DNA of 64,000 nt from Bacilli bacterium (lineage in GTDB: Bacteria; Bacillota_I; Bacilli_A; RF39; UBA660), in contig JAFQID010000029.1 in assembly GCA_017397685.1 (NCBI GenBank), forward strand, positions 1,931 to 65,930. Reading direction: 5' to 3'. Positions 1 through 57,587 of the stretch are shown one piece after another; position 1 is the first letter of the stretch; each line of letters starts with the position of its first letter. The notes beneath the pieces were generated by a model. It saw nothing but the letters and a program-made list of their open reading frames with translations, was not told the DNA's origin and ran no database searches. The position numbers and the translations under genes were made by a program.

Positions 1-159
1 ACAACTAGTTCAGAAACAACTACTCCACCAACTGAAATAGAAAACCCTGATACAAGTGATCCTATTGCAAGTAGTATATTTATGGGAATAATGTCAATGT
101 TCGGTTTAGCTGGAACAACAATATACTTAAAAAGAAAAAATAATTTAGAACTAAAATAA
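1..159 (+). CDS. 3' end of a surface-protein gene, truncated by the window edge, with a sortase-anchor-like C-terminus
   Basis: Frame 1 is open from base 1 to TAA at 157-159. The tail reads ...TTPPTEIENPDTSDPIASSIFMGIMSMFGLAGTTIYLKRKNNLELK: a Thr/Pro linker, a hydrophobic helix and a basic tail. Confidence 0.4.
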   Translation, partial: TTSSETTTPPTEIENPDTSDPIASSIFMGIMSMFGLAGTTIYLKRKNNLELK

Positions 160-246
160 TTTCTATAAATTAGATTAGCAAGAGTGCTAGTCTTTTTCTT
201 TTAGAACAAAATAAAAAACTTACCATTTTATAGTTTTAATGATAAG

Positions 247-1446
247 TTATTTTTCTTTTTGTTTATAGTATTCATTTACTAAAGATTTATAATTACATTG
301 TTTTAAAAAATCGTATGGAACCTTTTCATAATTTTTTTTATTGTGTTTACCAGTTTTAATATATCTTTGCCAATTTTGCATATATTCATCTACTATCTTT
401 AGACTTTTAGAAGTATTTATTGTAGGAAAAAACCAATATTGCCAAGTTAGGTCATTTTCATTTTTTCCAAAAAACTTTCTATTAAATTTTCTATTCATTG
501 CTTTTAATGTTACTTCATAGGTAGCATCTTTTTTAATCATCCATCTTCTTAAACCTTTAGCAGTTCTTCTTATCTTTCCTTTAATCTTTTTAATAGTATT
601 ATCACTTAAATCAATAACACCATTTTGATAAGAAAAACCTAAAAACTCAAATTTTTCTTTTGGACTATATAAATATTCTTTATCGGTATTTATTTCTAAA
701 TTAACACTTTTTAAATAATCGATAATGTACTGTTTATGTTTTTCTATTAATTCTTTAGTATCAGCAAATACAATAATATCATCAGCATATCTTAAATAGA
801 TAATATTATTATCAAAAAAGTATTTGTCTAAATCTTTTAAATAATAATTAGATAAAAATGCTGATATAGGAACACCTGCCATAACACCCTTTTGTTCCTT
901 AATTAGTTTATCGTTATATAGGACATATTCATTTGTTAATAGTCGCTTTAATAAATCATAAAGAGGTTTATCGTTTAGATCATCTTTTAGATTTTTTAGT
1001 AATATAGATATATCAATACTATTAAAATAGTTCTTTATATCTACTTTATAGCCATATAAATTATTTAATTTATTTTTAGTAGTTAAATCGAATATTGCTT
1101 TTTTAACACCACTATTTTGTCTAAATGAATATAAATTAGAAGAAAATAAATAGTCGTATTTATATAAAAGAAATGTTATCATTTTTAAAATGTAATTTTC
1201 TTCTGTTTTATACATATATACAACTCTTTTTTTACTTTTACCCATTTTGCCTATTAATACTTTTTTAGGCGTAGAAAATGTATAATCATTGTTAATTATT
1301 TTGTTTGCTATTTCCTTATATTGCTTTTCGTTAATAAATGTTTCATAATTAGCAAGAACTTTTTTTGGTAGATGAGAAGTTTCTTTTTTTCTTATTAGAA
1401 ATTCTTGCCATTTAGAATCATTATTTAAAAGATATATTAAACTCAT
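247..1446 (-). CDS. Stand-alone reverse transcriptase with a group-II-intron-like thumb; no endonuclease domain and no intron RNA
   Basis: RT motifs are present: KKRVVYMY, SFRQNSG, DIKNYFNSI, GVPISAFLSNYYLKDLD, YLRYADDIIVF, LEINTDK, FEFLGFSY. A maturase-like thumb follows (KIVDEYMQNWQRYIKTGKH). RBS GGTGAT lies 5 nt upstream of the ATG. Confidence 0.9.
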   Translation of the reverse strand: MSLIYLLNNDSKWQEFLIRKKETSHLPKKVLANYETFINEKQYKEIANKIINNDYTFSTPKKVLIGKMGKSKKRVVYMYKTEENYILKMITFLLYKYDYLFSSNLYSFRQNSGVKKAIFDLTTKNKLNNLYGYKVDIKNYFNSIDISILLKNLKDDLNDKPLYDLLKRLLTNEYVLYNDKLIKEQKGVMAGVPISAFLSNYYLKDLDKYFFDNNIIYLRYADDIIVFADTKELIEKHKQYIIDYLKSVNLEINTDKEYLYSPKEKFEFLGFSYQNGVIDLSDNTIKKIKGKIRRTAKGLRRWMIKKDATYEVTLKAMNRKFNRKFFGKNENDLTWQYWFFPTINTSKSLKIVDEYMQNWQRYIKTGKHNKKNYEKVPYDFLKQCNYKSLVNEYYKQKEK

Positions 1447-1464
1447 ACTTGATCACCACATTAA

Positions 1465-1600
1465 GTAAAGGAGAATCGATTTGAGAATCGACGTAGTCGA
1501 ATTCGACAAGATTAAATATATTATAGCCACTTGCACAACTTTTTAAAATAATATACTTCATCCCACTGCAAGTGTTTTTAAATAAAACATCCCCTTTACA
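1465..1600 (-). ncRNA. Structured 5' leader, a candidate RT-associated non-coding RNA
   Basis: On the minus-strand RNA, the 5' end GUAAAGGGGA (1599-1590) pairs with UCUCCUUUAC (1474-1465): 10 bp including one G-U. Inside are an 8-bp stem CACUUGCA/UGCAAGUG (1574-1567 with 1535-1528), the palindrome GUCGAAUUCGAC (1496-1507) and a tandem UCGAUUCUC x2 (1471-1491). Confidence 0.4.
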
Positions 1601-1606
1601 CCTAAT

Positions 1607-1615
1607 ATTATAACA
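1607..1615 (-). promoter_or_regulatory. Extended -10 promoter (TGTTATAAT) for the RT leader
   Basis: Minus strand reads TGT-TATAAT. The predicted start, about 7 nt downstream, falls on the 5' arm of the clamping helix. Confidence 0.4.
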
Positions 1616-1670
1616 TATTTTGGCTATTTTTTATATATAGCAAACAAATTGGATTTCTAATTAAGAGTGA

Positions 1671-1903
1671 TTAATAACACAACTTATTGAGAAGGTTATT
1701 GTAAAGTTTATTATTAAACAAAAAAATAGAATTGAATGTATCAGCAGAAACGGAGACTATCACGGTTTCTTTACTATTAAGAATGTTGATATTGTATTGT
1801 CTGCTAAAAATCCAAGAGATTTAGAAGTTCTTACGAAATTTAGACATAAAATAGAAGAACATATTGTTGATTATTTGAATTCTAAAAGTTATAAAAAAGA
1901 TTA
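1671..1903 (+). pseudogene. Start-less ORF fragment, a remnant of an unknown gene
   Basis: The frame is open from the stop at 1668-1670 to TAG at 1901-1903 (…GDYHGFFTIKNVDIVLSAKNPRDLEVLTKFRHKIEEHIVDYLNSKSYKKD). It has no plausible start codon or RBS. Confidence 0.3.
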
Positions 1904-1910
1904 GCACATA

Positions 1911-1936
1911 AAAACTACCGTGACGGTAGCTTTTTT
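1911..1936. terminator. Bidirectional intrinsic terminator
   Basis: AAAA-CTACCG-TGA-CGGTAG-C-TTTTTT. The hairpin is flanked by an A-run and a T-run and sits just 3' of the minus-strand gene that ends at 1949. Confidence 0.7.
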
Positions 1937-1948
1937 AATTATAATAGC

Positions 1949-2713
1949 CTATTCTATATTACTTCTAACTTCTAAGTTGTTAATATCGAAATCATTAAAT
2001 TGAAGAAAAAAGTAATCATATAATTCTTTTGCAAATTTATATTTGTCATTATATTCCTTGGCGTTAAAACAATTTAATACTTTTTCAATAAATTCTTGTT
2101 CCGGCAACTTCTGAACATTATATTTTTTTCTATAATTTTCATTAGTAAATATTTTTTGAATTTTATTAAGCGGAATACAAGGTATTTGTTTATTGTAAAA
2201 ATATCCTTCAATAACTCTTTGTAAAAATATGTTATAAGTAAAATCTATATCTTCTTTTTTCTTATATTTAGATTCTAACTCATCAAAACCATCCCATACA
2301 CTATAGCAATTCATTTTATATTTATATTCATTTACATCTTCTAAATTAAAATTTTTATTAGCTATATTTATTAGTTCTTGAACACTACCATCTTTATCAT
2401 ATAGTATCTTACCATTAATAAATATCATAGTTGTTGACAAGTGATAATCTTTTAATTCACTCTCAAAATATGATAATATTTTTTTCTTTGGATTTATAAA
2501 ATATTCAATAAGGAATCCATCTATATTTTTATTGCCTCTTTCTCTCCATGTAAGATTATCCTTTGTAACAATATAAATATCTATATCACTATTTTCATCA
2601 TAATTTCCAGTAGCATAACTTCCTGTTAATATAGCTCCTAAAAAGTAATCTTCATCTTTATATTGGCTTATAAATTTTTCTATGGACAACTCCCAATTTT
2701 GCACTATTATCAC
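1949..2713 (-). CDS. Nucleotidyltransferase-domain protein (Pol-beta fold, antibiotic-NTase-like)
   Basis: Carries a GS...DxD motif: GAILTGSYATGNYDENSDIDIYIV. It starts 9 nt after the serS stop, so it is probably co-transcribed. Confidence 0.55.
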   Translation of the reverse strand: MIIVQNWELSIEKFISQYKDEDYFLGAILTGSYATGNYDENSDIDIYIVTKDNLTWRERGNKNIDGFLIEYFINPKKKILSYFESELKDYHLSTTMIFINGKILYDKDGSVQELINIANKNFNLEDVNEYKYKMNCYSVWDGFDELESKYKKKEDIDFTYNIFLQRVIEGYFYNKQIPCIPLNKIQKIFTNENYRKKYNVQKLPEQEFIEKVLNCFNAKEYNDKYKFAKELYDYFFLQFNDFDINNLEVRSNIE

Positions 2714-2722
2714 CTCTTATTC

Positions 2723-4003
2723 TTAATTAATTTTTTCTAATCCACCTAAATATGGTCTTAATACTTCTGGAATAGTTATACTTCCATCAGCATTTTGATA
2801 TTGTTCTACTATCGCAGGAACTAATCTACTTGTTGCAAGTCCACTACCATTTAAAGTACAAGCATAATGTAAGTTACCATTTTCATCACGATATTTAGTG
2901 TTGTTTCTTCTTGCTTGATAATCTCTACTGTTAGAAACACTACTTACTTCCTTATAAATTTTCATACTTGGGATCCAAACTTCTATATCATAAGTTCTAC
3001 ACATACCTTGAGCACAATCGCCTGCAGCAAGTTTACTAACTTGATAATGAAGTCCTAAGCTTTTCATTAACCCTTCTGCAATATTTAGCAATTCATCAAA
3101 AGCATCTTCTGTTTTATCTTCAGTTACATATTGAACCATTTCAACTTTATTGAATTGATGTCCTCTAATTGTTCCTCTTTCTTCTTCTCTTGAGCTTCCT
3201 GCCTCAACTCTAAAACATTGTGTATAAGCAAAATATTTTTTTGGTAGTTCATTAATATCCATAATTTCATTAGCATGAACATTAACAAGTCCTGTTTCGG
3301 CAGTAGGTAATAAGAATTTAGAATTTTTTTCATCTTTTGCTTCATCTTGAATCATATATACTTCATCATTAAACTTTGGAAACTGGCCTGCACCAAAACC
3401 ACATTCGTATTTTAACATATATGGAAGCATCATAAATTGAAAACCATTTTTTATATGAGTATCAATAAAGTAATTTATTAAAGCCCACTCCAATCTTGCA
3501 CCAATCCCTGTATATATCCAAGATTTTTCTCCTGCAATTTTAACTCCTCTATCATAATCTACCATATTTAAATCTTTTAATATTTCATAATGTGGTTTTA
3601 TATCAAAATTAAATTTGGGCTTTTCTAAATTAGTTCTTAAAACTTCGTTATTTTCTTTTCCCCCAGCTTTAACATCTTCATCTGGTGTATTAGGTAACCC
3701 TGCTAAGTAGTCAAATATTTTAGTATCTAACTCATTATACTTAACCATTCCCTCATCTATCTTATTGCCTAATTCCTTCATTTGATTAACTATTTTTGCT
3801 GTATCTTTACCTTCTTTTTTCAGTGTAGGAATAGTATCACTTACTTTTCTTCTTTCTGCACGATACTCATCCATTAATGTACCTATTTTTCTTTTTTCTT
3901 TATCCCATTCTAAAACTTCATCTAAATTAACATTATCCATTCTTTTTAATAATGCTTTTTCAACTTCTTCTTTATTGTTTCTTATTCTATTTATATCTAT
4001 CAT
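2723..4003 (-). CDS. serS: Seryl-tRNA synthetase
   Basis: 426 aa with an N-terminal coiled-coil arm and class II motifs (FRVEAGSSREEERGTIRGHQFNKVE, GSGLATSRL). A Ser T-box lies upstream. Confidence 0.95.
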   Translation of the reverse strand: MIDINRIRNNKEEVEKALLKRMDNVNLDEVLEWDKEKRKIGTLMDEYRAERRKVSDTIPTLKKEGKDTAKIVNQMKELGNKIDEGMVKYNELDTKIFDYLAGLPNTPDEDVKAGGKENNEVLRTNLEKPKFNFDIKPHYEILKDLNMVDYDRGVKIAGEKSWIYTGIGARLEWALINYFIDTHIKNGFQFMMLPYMLKYECGFGAGQFPKFNDEVYMIQDEAKDEKNSKFLLPTAETGLVNVHANEIMDINELPKKYFAYTQCFRVEAGSSREEERGTIRGHQFNKVEMVQYVTEDKTEDAFDELLNIAEGLMKSLGLHYQVSKLAAGDCAQGMCRTYDIEVWIPSMKIYKEVSSVSNSRDYQARRNNTKYRDENGNLHYACTLNGSGLATSRLVPAIVEQYQNADGSITIPEVLRPYLGGLEKIN

Positions 4004-4019
4004 TTTAATCTATCCTTTC

Positions 4020-4312
4020 TATTTTGTTTAAATCTTTAAAAACACAAAATTTCTAGGATCGTGTAATCATCCACCTATAATTTTTTTTCATTTTCTCATC
4101 CCCTTAAAAATAAAAAGAGAATGGTATATAGGAGTACATAATGCACGGTACCATCCTCTTGTTTTACTTAATTCAAATAACGGCTATTAACCGGAAATAG
4201 TTTGCTATTTCACTCAAAGGTAGAAACTTCTAATTAATCATGTTATCTTACACCAACCGATAACTCTCTATAATGATTTACATAAAAGTCATGTCCTCAT
4301 CAAAGATTTATA
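4020..4312 (-). promoter_or_regulatory. T-box leader with a Ser (UCU) specifier
   Basis: The minus strand carries the Stem I sequence AGAGAGUUAUCGGUUGGUG and a UCU-ACCU specifier context. The T-box core GGAUGGUACCGUG is at 4144-4156, followed by a terminator 3' arm UACCAUUCUCU plus a U-run. Confidence 0.8.
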
Positions 4313-4318
4313 TATTAA

Positions 4319-4347
4319 ATAATAGCACAAAACCTTAAAATAGTCAA
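4319..4347 (-). promoter_or_regulatory. Promoter of the serS leader
   Basis: Minus strand TTGACT (4347-4342), 17 nt spacer, TATTAT (4324-4319). Confidence 0.6.
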
Positions 4348-4451
4348 ATTTGCTCATTCATACTATGATACCTCGTTCAATCTATTATTAGTATATTGAA
4401 TTTAGACAAAAATGGTTCTAATCGCTATTTTGGGCTATTTTTTGACAAAAA

Positions 4452-4537
4452 GAAAAACTCGCGTTTTCCCTTATATTATCTGGGTTTGCGAGTTATTTCC
4501 CACAACATTGTTTATATTTTTTACCACTGCCACATGG
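4452..4537 (-). repeat. secA-tail copy A1 (45-mer at 4493-4537) with its terminator
   Basis: Minus strand CCATGTGGCAGTGGTAAAAAATATAAACAATGTTGTGGGAAATAA encodes PCGSGKKYKQCCGK*. A CTCGC...GCGAG hairpin plus T-run follows. There is no start codon upstream in frame. Confidence 0.9.
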
Positions 4538-4691
4538 TTCTTTATATTGGAGCTTTTGGTGGCACTTTCCGGCTTTTGACGGCACTTTATGGCTTCCGAG
4601 AGCACTCTACAGCACTCGGGAGCACTAGCTGAGGGTATCTAAAAAGGTATTTAATTTTCAAAAATTAGCCTTTTTCGAATATTTTTTGTAT
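4538..4691 (-). repeat. T1 element body, copy a
   Basis: Homologous to 8206-8368, 17127-17290 and 20667-20832. It contains the hairpin region GGCTTCCGAG...CTCGGGAG, tandem GGTATCTAAAAA/GGTATTTAATTT (4634-4657) and the tail AAAAATTAGCCTTTTTCGAATATTTTTTGTAT. Confidence 0.85.
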
Positions 4692-4701
4692 TCTTATTTT
4701 T

Positions 4702-6237
4702 TTACCTTTTTCTTATTTCATCTTTAATAAATTTGACGAATTCGTCAATTGATATTGAATAAGTTTCTTCACTGCCATATTTACGATAACTAATTAAATT
4801 ATTATCTCTTTCGTTATTACCTAAAATTAATGTGATAGGATTTTTCATTATATTACTTTGTCTTATCTTTTTCCCCATATTTTCTTTTGAGTTATCATAT
4901 TCTACTCTTATATCTTCACTTAATAATAAATCATAAATTTTCTTACAATACTCATCATGGTATTTAACATTAACTGGAATAATATTTACTTGTACTGGAG
5001 ATAACCATATTGGTAATACTCCTTTAAATTGTTCAAGTAATAGCATTATAAACCTTTCATAAGAACCAAGTACTGCTCTATGAACCATAACTGGAACTTG
5101 CTTTTCTCCGTTTTCATCTATGTAAGATAGTCCAAATCTTTTAGGCATCGCGAAGTCTAACTGCACTGTTGGTATTTGTATTTTTCTTCCTAATTCATCT
5201 TTAAACATAAAGTCAATCTTAGGTCCATAAAGTGCAGCTTCACCTTCGCATCTTTTTGCATTTAGTCCCAATTCTTCACAAATTTCTGCAAGCATATTTT
5301 CACAGATATCCCAATCTTCTTGACTACCAATATATTTTTCAGGATGTTCATAATCTCTTACTGATAATGATACCCAGAACACATCATATAATCCCATATT
5401 AGAATAGAAATCTTTTATTAAATTACATATATTCATTACTTCTTGTTTTACTTGTTCACGAGTACAGAATGAATGACCATCTTCAACAGTAATTGCATAT
5501 ACTCTTGACAATCCTCCTACTGCTCCCTGTAATTCTGCTCTATATTGTTTATCTGATTCCATGTATCTAATTGGCAAATCTCTATAACTACGAAGTTTAG
5601 ATGCATATATTTGAGTATGATGTGGGCATTGTACTGGTTTTAAAACATATTTATGTCCTTTAGGTGATTCTACTCTAAATAGTTCATCATTAAATTTCAT
5701 AGCATGACCTGAAGTTTCAAATAATGAAATGTCTGCTAAAGATGGACAACTTACTTTTTGAAAACCATATCTTCTACACACTCTTTCTATTTCTTTTTGT
5801 AATTCATCTTTTACAATAGTTCCTCTTGGAGTATATAAAGGCAATCCTGCACCTACATAATCAGAAAAACAAAATAAATCTAAATCTTTTCCAATCTTTC
5901 TGTGATCTCTTTCCTTTAATTCTTCTAGGAACTCTAAAAATTTATCAAGTTCTTCTTTGCTTTCAAATGCTCTTCCTGAAATTCTATCTATCATTTCATT
6001 ATTAGCATCACCATTATAATAAACTCCACTTATTCTAAGTATTTTAACAAAACAATTATTATCTAATTTATTAATTTCTTTTTCTAACGATTCAAAATCA
6101 TTTTCACTTATTTTTTCATCGATTTTAAATTCATAATAAAATTCTTCTTCATTAAATACTTTATTATCTAATTTAACATTTTTATATTTATCTTTTATTA
6201 TTTGTTCTAATAATACAACTGCTTTTTCATTTATCAT
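4702..6237 (-). CDS. thrS: Threonyl-tRNA synthetase, N-terminally short form (no TGS domain and most of the editing domain missing)
   Basis: Class II catalytic and anticodon-binding domains are present (RDHRKIGKDLDLF, HRAVLGSYERF). ATG at 6237 has RBS GAAGG; an in-frame GTG at 6291 is the alternative start. A Thr T-box lies upstream. Confidence 0.9.
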   Translation of the reverse strand: MINEKAVVLLEQIIKDKYKNVKLDNKVFNEEEFYYEFKIDEKISENDFESLEKEINKLDNNCFVKILRISGVYYNGDANNEMIDRISGRAFESKEELDKFLEFLEELKERDHRKIGKDLDLFCFSDYVGAGLPLYTPRGTIVKDELQKEIERVCRRYGFQKVSCPSLADISLFETSGHAMKFNDELFRVESPKGHKYVLKPVQCPHHTQIYASKLRSYRDLPIRYMESDKQYRAELQGAVGGLSRVYAITVEDGHSFCTREQVKQEVMNICNLIKDFYSNMGLYDVFWVSLSVRDYEHPEKYIGSQEDWDICENMLAEICEELGLNAKRCEGEAALYGPKIDFMFKDELGRKIQIPTVQLDFAMPKRFGLSYIDENGEKQVPVMVHRAVLGSYERFIMLLLEQFKGVLPIWLSPVQVNIIPVNVKYHDEYCKKIYDLLLSEDIRVEYDNSKENMGKKIRQSNIMKNPITLILGNNERDNNLISYRKYGSEETYSISIDEFVKFIKDEIRKR

Positions 6238-6291
6238 TTTCTTACCTTCTTTCTTATTATTTACTTTTTGATTGGGAGTATTTCGTATCAC

Positions 6292-6530
6292 TTTCCGTTT
6301 CCGTCATTAAAATCTCCTCCTTTAAAACAAAAAGAATAATACCGTTATAGGAGTCTATAAGACGGTACCATCCTTATTTTTACTTAATTTATATAACCGA
6401 TACCCTCGGGCAATCTCTTTCGAGTGCAACATAATAGGTAGTAATTATCAAGTTTATTATTATCTTCCACCAAACGATAACTCTCTATAAAATAAATTAT
6501 TAATAATCGTATCCTATATCTTAGTTTTTC
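6292..6530 (-). promoter_or_regulatory. T-box leader with a Thr (ACU) specifier
   Basis: Stem I AGAGAGUUAUCGUUUGGUG and an ACU-ACCU specifier context are present. The T-box core GGAUGGUACCGUC is at 6361-6373, with a terminator plus U-run. An extended -10 TGATATAAT lies at about 6538-6546. Confidence 0.8.
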
Positions 6531-6572
6531 TAATATTATTATATCATATTTTTTACTTTTAATTAATTAAAT

Positions 6573-6602
6573 TAAAAAGCCTATTACATTGATTGTAATA
6601 GA
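6573..6602 (-). terminator. Intrinsic terminator after the small peptide gene
   Basis: CTATTACA (6581-6588) pairs with TGTAATAG (6594-6601). A T-run follows on the minus strand. Confidence 0.6.
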
Positions 6603-6637
6603 CTCTTAATCCAAATATTATTCGTATAATATATTTA

Positions 6638-6721
6638 TTAAAGAATGCTAAAACAACCAATATTAACTATTGATTTAGTTGTTGTCGTAGTAGTTGTAGT
6701 TGCTAATTGATTGTTTAACAT
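6638..6721 (-). CDS. 27-aa peptide MLNNQLATTTTTTTTKSIVNIGCFSIL (AgrD-like C-terminus)
   Basis: RBS GGGAGAG lies 6 nt upstream of the ATG. TTGACA (6780-6775) is upstream and a terminator is downstream. The peptide ends in GCFSIL; the agrD at 27255 has GCFHLA. Confidence 0.45.
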   Translation of the reverse strand: MLNNQLATTTTTTTTKSIVNIGCFSIL

Positions 6722-6818
6722 ATTAATCTCTCCCTTTCAAAAAGTGATTATAGAATAACACAAAATAGCATTTTTGTCAAAATTAACATTCTAAATTTAT
6801 AAAAAACTATAAAAAACG

Positions 6819-6840
6819 GGTATCTAAAAGGTATCTAAAG
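6819..6840 (-). repeat. Iteron pair, GGTATC family
   Basis: GGTATCTAAAA GGTATCTAAAG, an 11-bp period, just 3' (minus sense) of secA-tail copy A2. Confidence 0.85.
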
Positions 6841-6881
6841 TGCATTTTTAGGGGTTAAAATACAAAAAAATTGTAGCAAAG

Positions 6882-6967
6882 AAAAATCTCGAAAACCCTT
6901 ATATTTCCTGGGCTTGCGAGGTTTATTTGCCGCAACATTGTTTATATTTTTTTCCACTGACACATGG
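6882..6967 (-). repeat. secA-tail copy A2 (45-mer at 6923-6967) with its terminator
   Basis: Encodes PCVSGKKYKQCCGK* with one Gly to Val change. A CTCG..CCC/GGG..CGAG hairpin and T-run follow. Confidence 0.85.
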
Positions 6968-7070
6968 TGTAAAATCTGCAATTTTTTTACAGTTTTTACA
7001 ATTTTTTTATTTAAATTACAAATAATTTATAAATTCTACAACTTATTTTTACTCTAAAATCTTCGCAGAA

Positions 7071-7106
7071 CGTATGTAAAAACGTATGTAAAAACTTATG
7101 TAAAAA
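7071..7106 (-). repeat. Iteron triplet, GTATGT family
   Basis: CGTATGTAAAAA CGTATGTAAAAA CTTATGTAAAAA, a 12-bp period. Confidence 0.9.
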
Positions 7107-7131
7107 TGAAATTATTAAAGGTTCAAATGAG

Positions 7132-7698
7132 CTATTTTTTTATATTAAAATCTCTTTTTGCACTTTTGAAGTTTTCAGCATGAAGTTTTGTAATATTCTT
7201 TATACATTCTTTTAGTTTTATTCCTTCTGGTGTAAGTTCAACACTATCATTATCTAAATCTAAAATTTTAGTTATTTTTAATCCTTGAGCACTCATGTGA
7301 AAAAGATCACCAAAATTCGAAAAATAACTTCCTAAACTACCATTTTGTAAAAATCTTTGTAATCCATCAAGTGTTGATTTATAATCATTGATTTTTTTAT
7401 CTAAGATCATTTTGCATCTAAGATCTTGAATATTATTCTCATCTAAATCAAATAAATTGTTTTCTCTGATAAACTCTAATTCAACTAAACTTAAATCAAA
7501 CAAACTTGTACTAAAACTTAAATCATACATTTCATAAAAATTAAATTCTTTATTTGGGATTGGCTCCATATCCATTTCTCTGCTAAGCGCACATACTTCA
7601 TCCCATTCTTTTTTTAATGATTCATATGTAAGAAACATCCTATTATTTACAACATCTTGAATCTTGTTTTTATCAATCACTGTATTTCTTATAAACAT
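7132..7698 (-). CDS. Hypothetical protein, 188 aa
   Basis: Long ORF with RBS GTGAGGA. I recognise no domain. Confidence 0.6.
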   Translation of the reverse strand: MFIRNTVIDKNKIQDVVNNRMFLTYESLKKEWDEVCALSREMDMEPIPNKEFNFYEMYDLSFSTSLFDLSLVELEFIRENNLFDLDENNIQDLRCKMILDKKINDYKSTLDGLQRFLQNGSLGSYFSNFGDLFHMSAQGLKITKILDLDNDSVELTPEGIKLKECIKNITKLHAENFKSAKRDFNIKK

Positions 7699-7721
7699 AA
7701 TTAATCCTCACTTAGTATTTT

Positions 7722-7985
7722 TTATCTATGCATACTATTAGATTCTTCTATTTCTTCACCTGCTAAAGTTTTTACTAAATTTAAATAATAAGCATAGTCT
7801 TCTGGTGTTAAAGTAGCAACATCTACTACCTTGTATCCATTTGCTTGTGCATAAGCTTGAACATTTTTATACTCATTTTGATATTTTTTTACTCTTTCAT
7901 CATTTGCTGCAAGAGTCTTTTGTTCAACAAATATTATTTTCTGATCATCATCTTGACCCCAATAAGAATAACAACTCATTTCCAT
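7722..7985 (-). CDS. Hypothetical protein, about 87 aa
   Basis: The track ORF starts at 8030, but a TATGATATAAT promoter lies inside that extension. RBS TTGGAG precedes the ATG at 7985 (MEMSCYSYWGQ...). Confidence 0.55.
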   Translation of the reverse strand: MEMSCYSYWGQDDDQKIIFVEQKTLAANDERVKKYQNEYKNVQAYAQANGYKVVDVATLTPEDYAYYLNLVKTLAGEEIEESNSMHR

Positions 7986-8066
7986 TATAATCACTCCAAT
8001 CATTTTTATTATATCATAAATATTCCTCATTTTTTCACTATTTACCTAAAATTACCCAAGAAAAAA

Positions 8067-12843: not shown

Positions 12844-13326
12844 TCAGTTATAAAAATTTTCTAATATTTCTATTGATTTTATTCTATTTATATAAAAATG
12901 TCTTATTTCATCTTTTAGTTCACAATAAGCTGCTACTCCCCATTCATTACCCAAAAGAATTAAATCATAAGGATGAATAGTTCTACTTGTAAGTTTTTCT
13001 TCATTTTTAGAATAATACTCTATTAAACATTTTCTTTTTTCTTTAATCGCCCTATTTATTAGATTAAATAAATTTTTATCTTTTACATTTATTTCATTTG
13101 GTGTAATAAACCTTTTTGGAACACTTACATTTTGATTTAAAACATATCCACCATAAGGTCCTTTGATAGTATCTATATAAATACCTGCCTTTTCTATTTC
13201 ATCTTTATATACTCTAATCATCCTAGGAGTAACTTCTAATTTTTCAGACAATTCAGCAATACTATATTTTCTTCCTGTACTTAAATACTCAATCATAGTA
13301 AGTACATTACTAATTTTAGACATCAT
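12844..13326 (-). CDS. Short HTH-WYL transcriptional regulator
   Basis: The N-terminal winged HTH reads YSIAELSEKLEVTPRMIRVYKDEIEKAG. The C-terminal WYL-like domain reads RTIHPYDLILLGNEWGVAAYCELKDEIRHFYINRI. Confidence 0.7.
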   Translation of the reverse strand: MMSKISNVLTMIEYLSTGRKYSIAELSEKLEVTPRMIRVYKDEIEKAGIYIDTIKGPYGGYVLNQNVSVPKRFITPNEINVKDKNLFNLINRAIKEKRKCLIEYYSKNEEKLTSRTIHPYDLILLGNEWGVAAYCELKDEIRHFYINRIKSIEILENFYN

Positions 13327-13409
13327 ATCACCACCAATGTATCAATCTTATATCATATATATTTATACTAATTATATTACTAAAATCTATTATTTATAAT
13401 ATCATTCAA

Positions 13410-14705
13410 TTATCTATTTTTCGTTCCCATCATTGCATATAAAATTTTTTCAATATCAGATGATGAAGTCTCTCCTTTTATTAAACCAGTATCAGCGCTT
13501 GAGAACAATAATGCCAGTATTTTATTATTTACTTCTTCATCAGTTAAATTGCCATTATTTATTAAAGATAGATAGAAATAAGTTAATGCATACTTTTGTT
13601 TATATTCAGTTTCTAAATGTTTAGATGACATTAAAAGCTTTACAAAAATTCTCAAGAAATATAATGCAATTGAAATTATAGAAATAATTATAAATCCAGC
13701 TGGAATATTAATATTATTATTAAATATAGTAATTTCTAAAATTGTTTTATCTCCAAATTCAATTTTAGGACTTATGATTAGATACAATAAAATAATTATA
13801 AATATAACTATACCGCCTACTATAAAGCTATATTTTTTTACTTCTGCCTTATATTTATTAGCCTCGTTTTGCATATGTTCTGCCGGTTTAATAACTTTTA
13901 ATTTTTCCTCATATGTTTTTTCTATGTTTTGTAATCTTCTTTCAGCATCTTCTTCAAAACTATCAAATCTAACTTTAGCATCATTGCTAAAGTTACTATA
14001 ATCAGTTCTTACTTTTTCAAACCAATCCCTTTCTGCTTTTTTTACTTCTGACATATATTCTATGTATTCTTGTTTTTCATTTTCAATAGCAGTTATTGCT
14101 GTTGAATAAGCATTATTTATTTTGTCTATCTCTGTTTTAGATACTGATTTTCTAGTTAATGATTTATAATCATTTTCTCCAATCCTAAATCCCAAATAAG
14201 AAAATGCAACTTCACGTTCAATTTCATCACTACTGTTTATAGTTGATGTCAAATTAGAATTACTAGTTAATAAATTTATATAAATTTCTATACCTCTAAT
14301 ATCATATTTATCATATATATATTTTAATACTGTAAAAGATTTATATGACTTATTTTCATTTAAGCTATCTATAAAAATAAAATTTAATTTTTTACTATTA
14401 TTATAATCTAATCCTAGTTTATTTCGAATATTACTTTCAATATTTCTTTTTAAAGTATCTTCATCTTCTAATTCCATTAGTGAAGTAATCCAAGATTCTA
14501 TTTTTGTTATTTCAGCATTTATATAATTAGCATATGGTTCTATTTTATCTTTATATAATAATAAATTACTTTTAAAAAATGTTTTTAATTCAGTTAGATT
14601 ATTAAACTTTTTTGTTTTATTCAATTTATCTTTCAATATAATATTATTTTTTAAAATATGATTACTTATATTATTTTCAATATCAATCTTCTTCATTTCA
14701 ATCAA
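13410..14705 (-). CDS. Coiled-coil protein with two C-terminal TM helices, unknown function
   Basis: 431 aa. The N-terminal 290 aa are Lys/Glu-rich and helical. TM segments are FIVGGIVIFIIILLYLII and AGFIIISIISIALYFL. The start is TTG at 14705 or ATG at 14696. Confidence 0.6.
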   Translation of the reverse strand: MIEMKKIDIENNISNHILKNNIILKDKLNKTKKFNNLTELKTFFKSNLLLYKDKIEPYANYINAEITKIESWITSLMELEDEDTLKRNIESNIRNKLGLDYNNSKKLNFIFIDSLNENKSYKSFTVLKYIYDKYDIRGIEIYINLLTSNSNLTSTINSSDEIEREVAFSYLGFRIGENDYKSLTRKSVSKTEIDKINNAYSTAITAIENEKQEYIEYMSEVKKAERDWFEKVRTDYSNFSNDAKVRFDSFEEDAERRLQNIEKTYEEKLKVIKPAEHMQNEANKYKAEVKKYSFIVGGIVIFIIILLYLIISPKIEFGDKTILEITIFNNNINIPAGFIIISIISIALYFLRIFVKLLMSSKHLETEYKQKYALTYFYLSLINNGNLTDEEVNNKILALLFSSADTGLIKGETSSSDIEKILYAMMGTKNR

Positions 14706-57069: not shown

Positions 57070-57098
57070 TTGACAAAACTCATTAAATTTGCTATAAT
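57070..57098 (+). promoter_or_regulatory. Perfect consensus sigma-A promoter
   Basis: TTGACA (57070-57075), 17 nt spacer, TATAAT (57093-57098). Confidence 0.75.
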
Positions 57099-57104
57099 TA
57101 AATA

Positions 57105-57469
57105 CGTGTGGAGCATTATTCTAGTCAAATAGACTACTAGAAGATGGGGCTAAAAATCCATTAATTGTGCAAAAAGATACTTTATGTGTTTTGCTTCTTT
57201 CGCCCAGACTGGGGTGAACATATAATTTTAGATTTAAGGATATTATATAATGGCATATATAAGAACTCCTTTTATCACATCGGAGATTATGAACGCACAT
57301 GTCGTGAGTGGTTTATTGGGAAAGAAATTGAAAAATAAATTGCAAAAGCGAATAAAAGTAGAACCTATTTGTTTGGGAAAACCTCTAGACTGTCATGACT
57401 ATAAGGATTGAAGTGCGGACTAAGTGGTAATCGAGTAATCACTTAAGGCAACTAGTGATTTGGTTTTTT
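57105..57469 (+). ncRNA. Unclassified structured RNA or riboswitch-like leader of about 365 nt, ending in an intrinsic terminator
   Basis: G+C-enriched pockets stand out in an AT-rich background. There is a hairpin at 57129-57152. The terminator is AATCACT (57437-57443) paired with AGTGATT (57454-57460) plus TGGTTTTTT. The competing helix is TAAGTG (57421-57426) paired with CACTTA (57440-57445). Confidence 0.45.
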
Positions 57470-57587
57470 AAAGAGAAATCGCCTAAGGGTAACCGAGGGA
57501 AAAATCCAAGAGAAATTCAACTCGACCTAAAGCCGTAAAATTAACTTATAGTATTCCATACATTTTTTTATTAGGAGAAAAAATAAA

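Follow-up and report, generated by a model that had tools for sequence, protein, structure and literature searches.

The locus described here brings together two entries that have been catalogued separately. UG26 is a class-2 UG/Abi group of reverse transcriptases (RTs) with 35 members, 9 of which have a YcjD/COG2852-like neighbour, and no non-coding RNA (ncRNA) was described for the group (Mestre et al. 2022, NAR 50:6084, PMC9226505). Among the 19 "RT motifs" found near RT genes is RT-5, for which only a possible role in retrons or diversity-generating retroelements was put forward (Weinberg et al. 2017, NAR 45:10811, PMC5737381). Our literature search found no paper that links RT-5 with UG26 or that characterises either of them. 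The stretch of DNA analysed here, referred to as the window, is a 64-kb piece of contig JAFQID010000029.1 from a Bacilli bacterium, and near its left end, on the minus strand, a gene for a RT is preceded by a structured leader RNA. It is virtually certain that the two parts are identified correctly, the RT as UG26 and the RNA as RT-5. The enzyme group and the Rfam RNA are already catalogued; what is new is the pairing of UG26 with RT-5, an extended RNA structure that includes the helices P1 and P2 and a pseudoknot, a candidate template window in the RNA, and two families of partner proteins. Compared with the UG26 of Mestre and co-workers, the RT in the window is of the same size, matches the profile over its full length and carries no fused domain. 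Beyond their description there are now at least 80 species-level loci, the RNA partner, and two small partner families without a Pfam match.

The class-2 relatives DRT2, DRT9, and DRT10 have each revealed an unprecedented route of making DNA. DRT10 (UG17) is a tripartite system of RT, ncRNA, and SLATT protein (Tang et al. bioRxiv 10.1101/2025.10.16.682844; 10.64898/2026.04.29.721553; 10.64898/2026.06.29.735271), and it makes tandem repeats from a template window that lies between SL5 and SL1 and is reset by A-A' microhomology (10.1101/2025.10.16.682844; 10.64898/2026.06.29.735271). The module in the window is like DRT10 in that UG17 is the next-best specific PADLOC family of its RT (123.5 bits), the two RTs being only distantly related. 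It is also like DRT10 in having an upstream ncRNA of about 137 nt with a single-stranded segment between a hairpin and the basal stem, a short direct repeat, readable as A-B-A', at that segment, and a conserved hydroxyl residue at the C-terminus of the RT. No SLATT gene was found in the window, and SLATT was not among the top 25 families when the neighbours of 43 loci were scanned with Pfam and PADLOC. DRT9 (UG28) and DRT2 (UG2) resemble the module in the window in that a RT and an upstream ncRNA make up the system and a separate effector gene is lacking. However, the template of DRT9 is a conserved poly-U tract that is copied into poly-dA and the candidate template of UG26 is not poly-U, while DRT2 makes a concatemeric gene and the UG26 RNAs are without a conserved open concatemer. 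Retrons also place a RT gene beside a structured RNA with paired ends, but they belong to another RT family, and in UG26 no msr/msd organisation, no unpaired branching G beside the clamp, and no retron effector are apparent. Group II intron RTs and G2L4 share the fingers-palm-thumb fold with the RT in the window (TM scores of 0.71-0.79), which, unlike them, has no intron RNA, no maturase-level score, and no endonuclease domain. A diversity-generating retroelement is not indicated, since no repeats resembling a template repeat and a variable repeat (TR/VR) were found within 8 kb of the RT.

The UG26 reverse transcriptase

The RT is encoded by a single open reading frame (ORF) of 399 aa. The sole Pfam domain found in it is RVT_1 at residues 67-272 and no other domain is fused to it. 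The PADLOC profile RT_UG26 matched the protein end to end, residues 1-398 against profile positions 1-397 of 398, with an E value of 4.1e-152 and a score of 504.6 bits. Apart from UG17, the runners-up were the generic RT model with 125 bits, UG4 with 121 bits and UG27 with 107 bits; Drt9 and Drt2 scored 85 and 57 bits and the retron RT models 61-63 bits. With the NCBIfam models for group II maturase, Drt3a, retron, and Drt2 the protein stayed far under every cutoff, for instance 128 bits with TIGR04416 (cutoff 300) and 61.3 bits with retron_St85_RT (cutoff 235). The YADD motif is at residues 220-223, and an alignment of 39 sequences shows no variation at Y220, D222, and D223 and at least 90% conservation at A221. 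A first-pass annotation, made from the letters of the sequence alone, had described an intact RT devoid of intron domains, and this description holds, since the catalytic residues are in place and a search of window positions 1-8000 against Rfam (E<=1) returned RT-5 and two T-boxes and no group II intron RNA. The protein is not an intron-derived fragment. The enzyme is intact, stands alone, and belongs to the UG/DRT lineage, within UG26 and hence within class 2, which also includes DRT2, DRT9, and DRT10.

The AlphaFold2 (AF2) model of the RT is a single compact fold with a mean predicted confidence (pLDDT) of 92.4. Its closest fold is the GsI-IIC group II intron RT (TM 0.78-0.79), followed by G2L4 (0.71), DRT9 (0.63-0.66) and DRT2 (0.52), and sequence-profile matches to the PDB agree with this ranking. 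The C-terminus carries a conserved NEYY motif in which Y394 is conserved in at least 90% of the 39 sequences. In DRT10, DNA synthesis is primed by a Ser or Tyr at the C-terminus of the RT, which makes Y394 a candidate for the same role.

A search of a large protein collection gave 1409 RT homologues at E<=1e-20, and the best 120 of these are all about 400 aa long with RVT_1 as their only domain. In a scan of one genome per species, relatives were found in 416 of 185,579 species genomes. We fetched 80 loci from species-level genomes (numbered with the prefix L below), and their RTs are 39-96% identical to that of the window. All 39 aligned homologues, as well as 10 of the most distant locus RTs, were UG26 by the profile test. 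Nearly all of the loci come from metagenome-assembled genomes (MAGs), many of them labelled as ruminant or other animal gut or faecal, and they are distributed over Bacilli, Erysipelotrichaceae, Clostridia, Lachnospiraceae, Oscillospiraceae, Prevotella, Alistipes, Muribaculaceae, and one Eggerthellales genome. Carriage of the module by phages was also considered and was rejected, because the viral contigs of IMG/VR contained no UG26 and only unrelated RTs at 25-30% identity.

The window and L001, which is another species-level genome, are 96% identical at the nucleotide level from position 1638, about 20 nt upstream of the -10 element, through the RT gene, and their flanks are unrelated. A second contig, L086, is 99% identical to the window and shows the window's own context. 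By these comparisons the promoter, the RNA, and the RT move as a unit. The same comparisons bear on the reading that the RT is a domesticated group-II-intron-like enzyme with a housekeeping role, for example in DNA repair as proposed for G2L4, and that the RNA is incidental. The best folds (GsI-IIC at TM 0.78 and G2L4 at TM 0.71), the 128 bits obtained with TIGR04416 and the housekeeping chromosomal context speak for this reading. However, those 128 bits are far under the cutoff, the UG26 profile fits end to end, and a dedicated RNA that covaries accompanies the gene in 71 loci. The patchy distribution among species genomes and the different flanks of near-identical copies both point to an accessory and not a core gene. 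We regard a domesticated housekeeping RT as highly improbable.

The RT-5 leader RNA

The elements of the module, all on the minus strand of the window, are as follows.

1607 to 1615, minus strand: extended -10 element TGtTATAAT, read from the sequence, ending 7 nt before the clamp
1590 to 1599, minus strand: 5' strand of helix P1, GUAAAGGGGA, purine-rich, one half of the end clamp, from covariation
1573 to 1589, minus strand: hairpin P2, UGUUUU-AUUUA-AAAACA, 91.5% paired with 6 of 6 pairs covarying, outside the Rfam RT-5 model
1567 to 1574, minus strand: 5' strand of the pseudoknot, CACUUGCA, 99.3% paired with 5 of 6 pairs covarying
1508 to 1564, minus strand: long hairpin P3, from the Rfam RT-5 alignment, its helices 4 and 5 being 91.9% and 97.2% paired
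1535 to 1528, minus strand: 3' strand of the pseudoknot, UGCAAGUG, the apical loop of P3, pairing with CACUUGCA
1485 to 1504, minus strand: hairpin P4, GAAUUCGAC-UAC-GUCGAUUC, its helices 6 and 7 being 82.5% and 98.4% paired
1475 to 1484, minus strand: junction J between P4 and P1, UCAAAUCGAU, single-stranded, the candidate template window
1471 to 1491, minus strand: direct repeat UCGAUUCUC-AAA-UCGAUUCUC in an A-B-A' pattern, read from the sequence
1465 to 1474, minus strand: 3' strand of helix P1, UCUCCUUUAC, pyrimidine-rich, pairing with GUAAAGGGGA
1453 to 1457, minus strand: Shine-Dalgarno sequence GGUGA, 6 nt before the ATG at 1446 and outside the clamp
247 to 1446, minus strand: UG26 RT, 399 aa

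The Rfam model for RT-5 (RF03026, 104 nt) matched the minus strand at 1472-1577 over its full length, 1-104, with 49.3 bits, the gathering score being 45.7. This model stops short of P1 and P2, and the strands of the pseudoknot are unpaired in its structure line. Folded as a single sequence the leader of the window is unexceptional (z = -1.45) and, because its folding energy is unremarkable, support for a real RNA must come from comparative data. When the 220 nt upstream of the RTs were inspected by eye, nearly every one had a common layout. Leader alignments made with MAFFT put the clamp strands out of register and were dropped in favour of a covariance model built from four sequences, those of the window and its three closest relatives. 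This model found exactly one match in 71 of 81 sources (E<=1e-4), and in each case the match was directly 5' of the RT and on the same strand. These 71 loci span at least 3 phyla and each lies upstream of a UG26 RT. Of 11 other UG26 loci scored with the Rfam RT-5 model, 10 reached 52-88 bits, including two that the four-sequence model had missed. We consider it likely that the RT-5 RNA is the dedicated partner of the RT.

The pairs were counted on the model alignment of the 71 sequences, to which the pseudoknot was added by hand. The order of elements from 5' to 3' is the P1 5' strand, P2, the pseudoknot strand, P3, an invariant GU, P4, J, and the P1 3' strand. Standard pairs occupy 94.8% of the cells, compared with 68.7% when the 3' letters were shuffled and 41-55% when the 3' partners were slid by 1-3 columns, and compensatory changes were found in 45 of the 47 pairs. 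Comparison of the leader across homologous loci had been suggested in the first-pass annotation, and its outcome is a conserved structure. The counts for the nested helices lean towards structure because the sequences were aligned with a model that contains those helices; the support for the pseudoknot is independent since the pseudoknot is absent from that model. The 10-nt end clamp predicted in that annotation, GUAAAGGGGA with UCUCCUUUAC, is a conserved helix, being 97.6% paired with compensatory changes at 10 of 10 pairs. What had been seen there as an 8-bp stem with a 31-nt loop is correct as a pairing and wrong as a simple stem, because its strands, a single strand on the 5' side and the apical loop of P3, form the conserved pseudoknot. 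Similarly, the 12-nt palindrome GUCGAAUUCGAC is present in the leader of the window and is not conserved, and the pairing that had been offered as its alternative is the conserved P4 at 1504-1485. P4 itself varies in both sequence and length among the homologues. By comparative evidence the leader is a structured RNA, conserved and clamped at its ends, that accompanies the RT gene from locus to locus.

An extended -10 promoter had also been predicted, and TGtTATAAT is indeed present at 1615-1607 on the minus strand, from which the transcript should start at about 1603-1599. A simple scan for -35 and -10 elements did not list it because there is no match at -35. Among the 71 homologues, 45 have TATAAT with at most one mismatch 3-15 nt upstream of P1, mostly at 6-7 nt, and 23 of these 45 have the TG; the loci without a TATAAT match are mostly Bacteroidota or GC-rich genomes.

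The paired ends of the RNA also raise the question of whether it could be a retron ncRNA. The clamp would then be the a1/a2 stem, the 2'-OH of a G beside the clamp would prime, and P4 and the nucleotides beyond it would be copied into a branched msDNA that restrains a toxin. In retron ncRNAs the 5' and 3' ends pair as they do here, the template would start beside the 3' clamp strand, and Weinberg et al. (2017) speculated that many RT motifs are retrons. It is difficult to reconcile with this that the retron RT models reach only 61-63 bits where UG26 reaches 504.6 bits, that in most sequences the residue following P1 is engaged in P2, and that the window carries no gene for an effector and none of the known retron effectors was seen among the neighbours. 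In addition, no long hairpin resembling msd is conserved in the alignment of the 71 RNAs. A retron-like system is thus very unlikely. The first-pass annotation had likened the locus to retrons and to DRTs in one breath; by its RT family it is not a retron, and the analogy with the ncRNA-templated DRTs is a reasonable one because the RT is a class-2 UG enzyme and the leader is a conserved structured RNA.

A proposed ribonucleoprotein and its candidate template

We propose, as a reasonably probable reading, that the module is a self-contained ribonucleoprotein of the class-2 UG/DRT type which copies a short RNA template and whose product serves in phage defence. The module comprises its own promoter, a structured ncRNA of about 135-140 nt, and the UG26 RT gene (about 1465-1615 plus 247-1446, minus strand). 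The RT would bind the clamped multi-helix RNA as a scaffold, and the RNA would present a fixed single-stranded window of 10 nt between P4 and P1. It is proposed that the RT copies this junction into DNA because the characterised class-2 UG RTs with an upstream structured RNA, namely DRT10/UG17, DRT9, and DRT2, use that RNA both as scaffold and as template. P4 is a candidate for the element that sets the 5' boundary of the template, after SL5 of DRT10. Copying may be repeated by resetting on the (A/U)UUC(U) direct repeat around J, and priming may be by the protein, for which Tyr394 is the candidate. The DNA product would then act in phage defence. On balance we lean, by a little, towards a defence role for the module. 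That J is a reiterated template is a tentative idea which we hold to be possible and not probable.

Several properties of J prompted this idea. No other single-stranded segment of the RNA is as constrained in length as J, which lies between P4 and the basal helix P1. It is 10 nt long in 56 of the 71 sequences and 9-11 nt long in 68, and its consensus is UCAAANNNWU. In most members J is bracketed by the (A/U)UUC(U) repeat of 3-4 nt with a period of 10-11 nt, and this short repeat exceeds a composition-matched null (mean longest match of 3.4 against 2.88, reached in 0 of 2000 shuffles). In the window the two copies of UCGAUUCUC, at 1491-1483 and 1479-1471, reach from the P4 3' strand across J into the beginning of the P1 3' strand. 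The tandem UCGAUUCUC is therefore present as had been noted in the first pass, but it is not a feature of the family, since the repeat attains 9 nt in no locus but the window and L001 and measures 4-6 nt in L002 and L003 and 3-4 nt elsewhere. The copy in the window is cleanly made up of two parts, and no other member of the family has so long an A-B-A' repeat.

In its boldest form the proposal is that UG26 with RT-5 is a minimal, effector-less, telomerase-like enzyme which is anchored on P4 and P1 and reiterates the 10-nt window. In the window, resetting on the 9-nt UCGAUUCUC would give a 12-nt unit that is the complement of UCGAUUCUCAAA, Tyr394 would prime, and the tandem-repeat DNA would stop phage growth either alone or through partners of the MGLFD/MGFF type described below. 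We regard this version as rather unlikely. If it is true, template-reiterating RTs would exist in bacteria in a second lineage, independent of DRT10 and widespread in gut Firmicutes and Bacteroidota.

The clamp, which joins the ends of the RNA, and the direct repeat at the junction in the window, both invoked in the first-pass annotation, could also be accounted for by a DRT2-like mechanism in which the whole RNA between the clamp strands is copied by rolling circle into a concatemeric cDNA that encodes a new gene. We looked for such an open concatemer and rejected it, because a stop-free concatenated frame exists in only 14-21 of the 71 RNAs and neither the strand nor the frame is consistent. 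Moreover, the lengths of the hairpins vary freely, and because of this any reading frame of the DRT2 kind would shift; the DRT2 model gives the RT only 57 bits. DRT2-like synthesis is, in our estimate, extremely improbable.

A number of observations weigh against copying of J and against defence. UCAAA, which forms the 5' half of J, shows high conservation, unlike the poorly conserved template of DRT10. In a permutation test against cross-locus pairs the two copies of the repeat showed no locus-specific co-variation (P ~0.1-0.2). The (A/U)UUC(U) repeat thus behaves as a conserved motif and not as a co-varying one, and because this test was negative the long tandem repeat of the window was not used as evidence. 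Since the copies do not co-vary locus by locus, the A-B-A' reading is compatible with the data and is not demonstrated by them. As to defence, Mestre and co-workers called the defence prediction for UG26 "inconclusive" (PMC9226505), the neighbours in the window and at most loci are housekeeping genes, and the window has no effector and no gene between or after the RNA and the RT. Finally, the RNA of the window ends just 18 nt upstream of the start codon of the RT, on the same strand, and is not followed by a strong U-run (5 U in the 10 nt after P1), and because of this spacing and the weak U-run it could be nothing but a 5' untranslated region (5' UTR).

This last point has to be weighed for the whole family, for which the corresponding reading is that the RNA acts only in cis, as an autoregulatory leader through which the RT or another factor, on binding, would control translation or transcription of the RT gene. 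The RNA is always in the position of a 5' UTR, a median of 19 nt separates the end of P1 from the start codon among the homologues, and neither Rfam nor Weinberg et al. (2017) gives RT-5 a function. But no conserved helix includes the Shine-Dalgarno sequence or the start codon and, because of this, no mechanism of sequestration is visible. In addition, at least 7 U are present in the 10 nt after P1 in 39 of the 71 homologues, and by eye a separate G+C-rich terminator hairpin with a U-run lies between the RNA and the ATG of the RT in L036, L039, L041, L044, L049, L059, and L067. The U-runs and these hairpins suggest that the RNA is a discrete transcript, with read-through into the RT gene. Taken with the use of upstream structured RNAs as scaffold and template by all three of DRT2, DRT9, and DRT10, this makes a purely cis-acting leader unlikely, and we retain the templated ribonucleoprotein as the preferred reading.

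Partner proteins and genomic context

In the first-pass annotation the RT had no partner gene, and this is correct for the window. Of 80 relatives, however, 48 encode one of two conserved small proteins, families A and B, which are mutually exclusive. Both have an N-terminal MG(L/F)F(D/S)xL motif, a variable linker, and a conserved C-terminal domain, and beyond the N-terminal MG(L/F)F motif they are not detectably homologous to each other. Neither family has a match in Pfam or a sequence match in the PDB, and DUF559 of Pfam, which was compared on account of the YcjD-like cluster of Mestre and co-workers, does not match family A.

Family A is found at 27 of the 80 loci, in the more distant RT clades, and its proteins are about 150-190 aa long, their genes immediately preceding the RNA and sharing its strand, with the C-terminal motif ..GIPFINFYTHMPNERxYVxxRI... 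Family B is found at 21 of the 80 loci, and also in L087, L088, and L090, whose RTs are 74-77% identical to that of the window; the RT clades that carry it are those closest to the window. Its proteins are about 100-157 aa long and are encoded downstream of the RT in convergent orientation, often overlapping the stop codon of the RT. They have an MGLFD N-terminus, a disordered linker, and a small alpha/beta domain that ends in ..VRFDKxNTYIIVE..YHIKK. The large protein collection holds 163 members of family B, all of them unnamed or called "hypothetical protein". In the AF2 model of a B protein the C-terminal domain is confident (pLDDT >94), and no fold match was better than E 0.04. Examples of the two families, and the surface protein gene discussed next, are located as follows.

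L019:5373-5816, L026:5302-5820, and L054:5252-5839, and 24 other loci, same strand as the RNA: family A
L009:7187-7564, L010:7168-7578, and L087:8807-9202, minus strand, convergent to the RT: family B
Window 1 to 158, plus strand (3' end of the gene); L086:2813-4375; L087:7242-8753; L090:2274-3824: secreted surface protein of about 510 aa with a C-terminal membrane anchor
Window 172 to 193, scored on the plus strand: hairpin between the convergent surface protein gene and the stop codon of the RT

Neither A nor B is encoded in the window or in L086. In L087 and L090 the gene order is RT, the convergent anchored surface protein of about 510 aa, and then B, and since the window shares the surface protein with these two loci, any B gene would lie past the left edge of the window. 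L086 has a different gene at the position where B is expected. The surface proteins are 43-68% identical to one another and are convergent to the RT in the window and in the relatives whose RTs are 74-77% identical, which could reflect either synteny of related genomes or a link with the module. The hairpin at 172-193 has a weaker U-run when it is read on the minus strand, and it is probably a terminator shared by the two genes.

On the other side, a bidirectional terminator at 1915-1929 separates the module from the upstream nucleotidyltransferase-serS operon. A small ORF lies at 1797-1904 on the plus strand, between the RT module and the nucleotidyltransferase gene, and is followed by this terminator. 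From its first start codon it encodes 35 aa; in L086 it is called as a gene of 67 aa, and it belongs to no known family.

The first ~26 kb of the window contains serS and thrS with T-box leaders and genes for a nucleotidyltransferase, Ham1, an M3 peptidase, SecA, HPF, HTH and WYL regulators, DUF4097 and DUF6161 proteins, and several proteins without a Pfam match, and it reads as an ordinary co-directional chromosomal stretch. The flanks at 43 other loci are heterogeneous and consist chiefly of housekeeping genes. It had been suggested at first that the RT might have a role in the biology of neighbouring gene cassettes. This idea is unsupported because the neighbouring genes are ordinary housekeeping genes, and the module that is 96% identical lies in a different context elsewhere.

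Among 140 neighbours of the 43 loci there was one strong defence match each to AbiO, Nhi, JetA, IetA, PDC-S68, and SoFic (raw counts). The most frequent matches to defence models were to mad3, and these are probably non-specific because their count coincides with that of the ABC-transporter ATPases in the same set (PF00005, 5 members). The association with defence that can be read from the gene neighbourhood is therefore suggestive at best. An Abi_2 gene (PF07751) is located at L087:3923-4837 on the minus strand, 1.2 kb upstream of, and divergent from, a RT that is 77% identical to that of the window. In the window itself a gene for a WYL-domain regulator adjoins that for a DUF6161 membrane protein at 12844-14705 on the minus strand, about 11 kb from the RT. 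WYL regulators are frequent companions of defence systems.

The closest relative of the window genome, which has about 25% G+C, is a Bacilli MAG from goat caecum. An ornate large extremophilic (OLE) RNA is present at 57092-57575 on the plus strand with 223.6 bits. The T-box leaders of serS and thrS are similar to each other, and further upstream of each leader the two genes share a direct repeat of about 85 nt that is 77-91% identical; these T-box and repeat regions are at 4454-4538, 6882-6968, 4162-4273, and 6378-6490 of the window.

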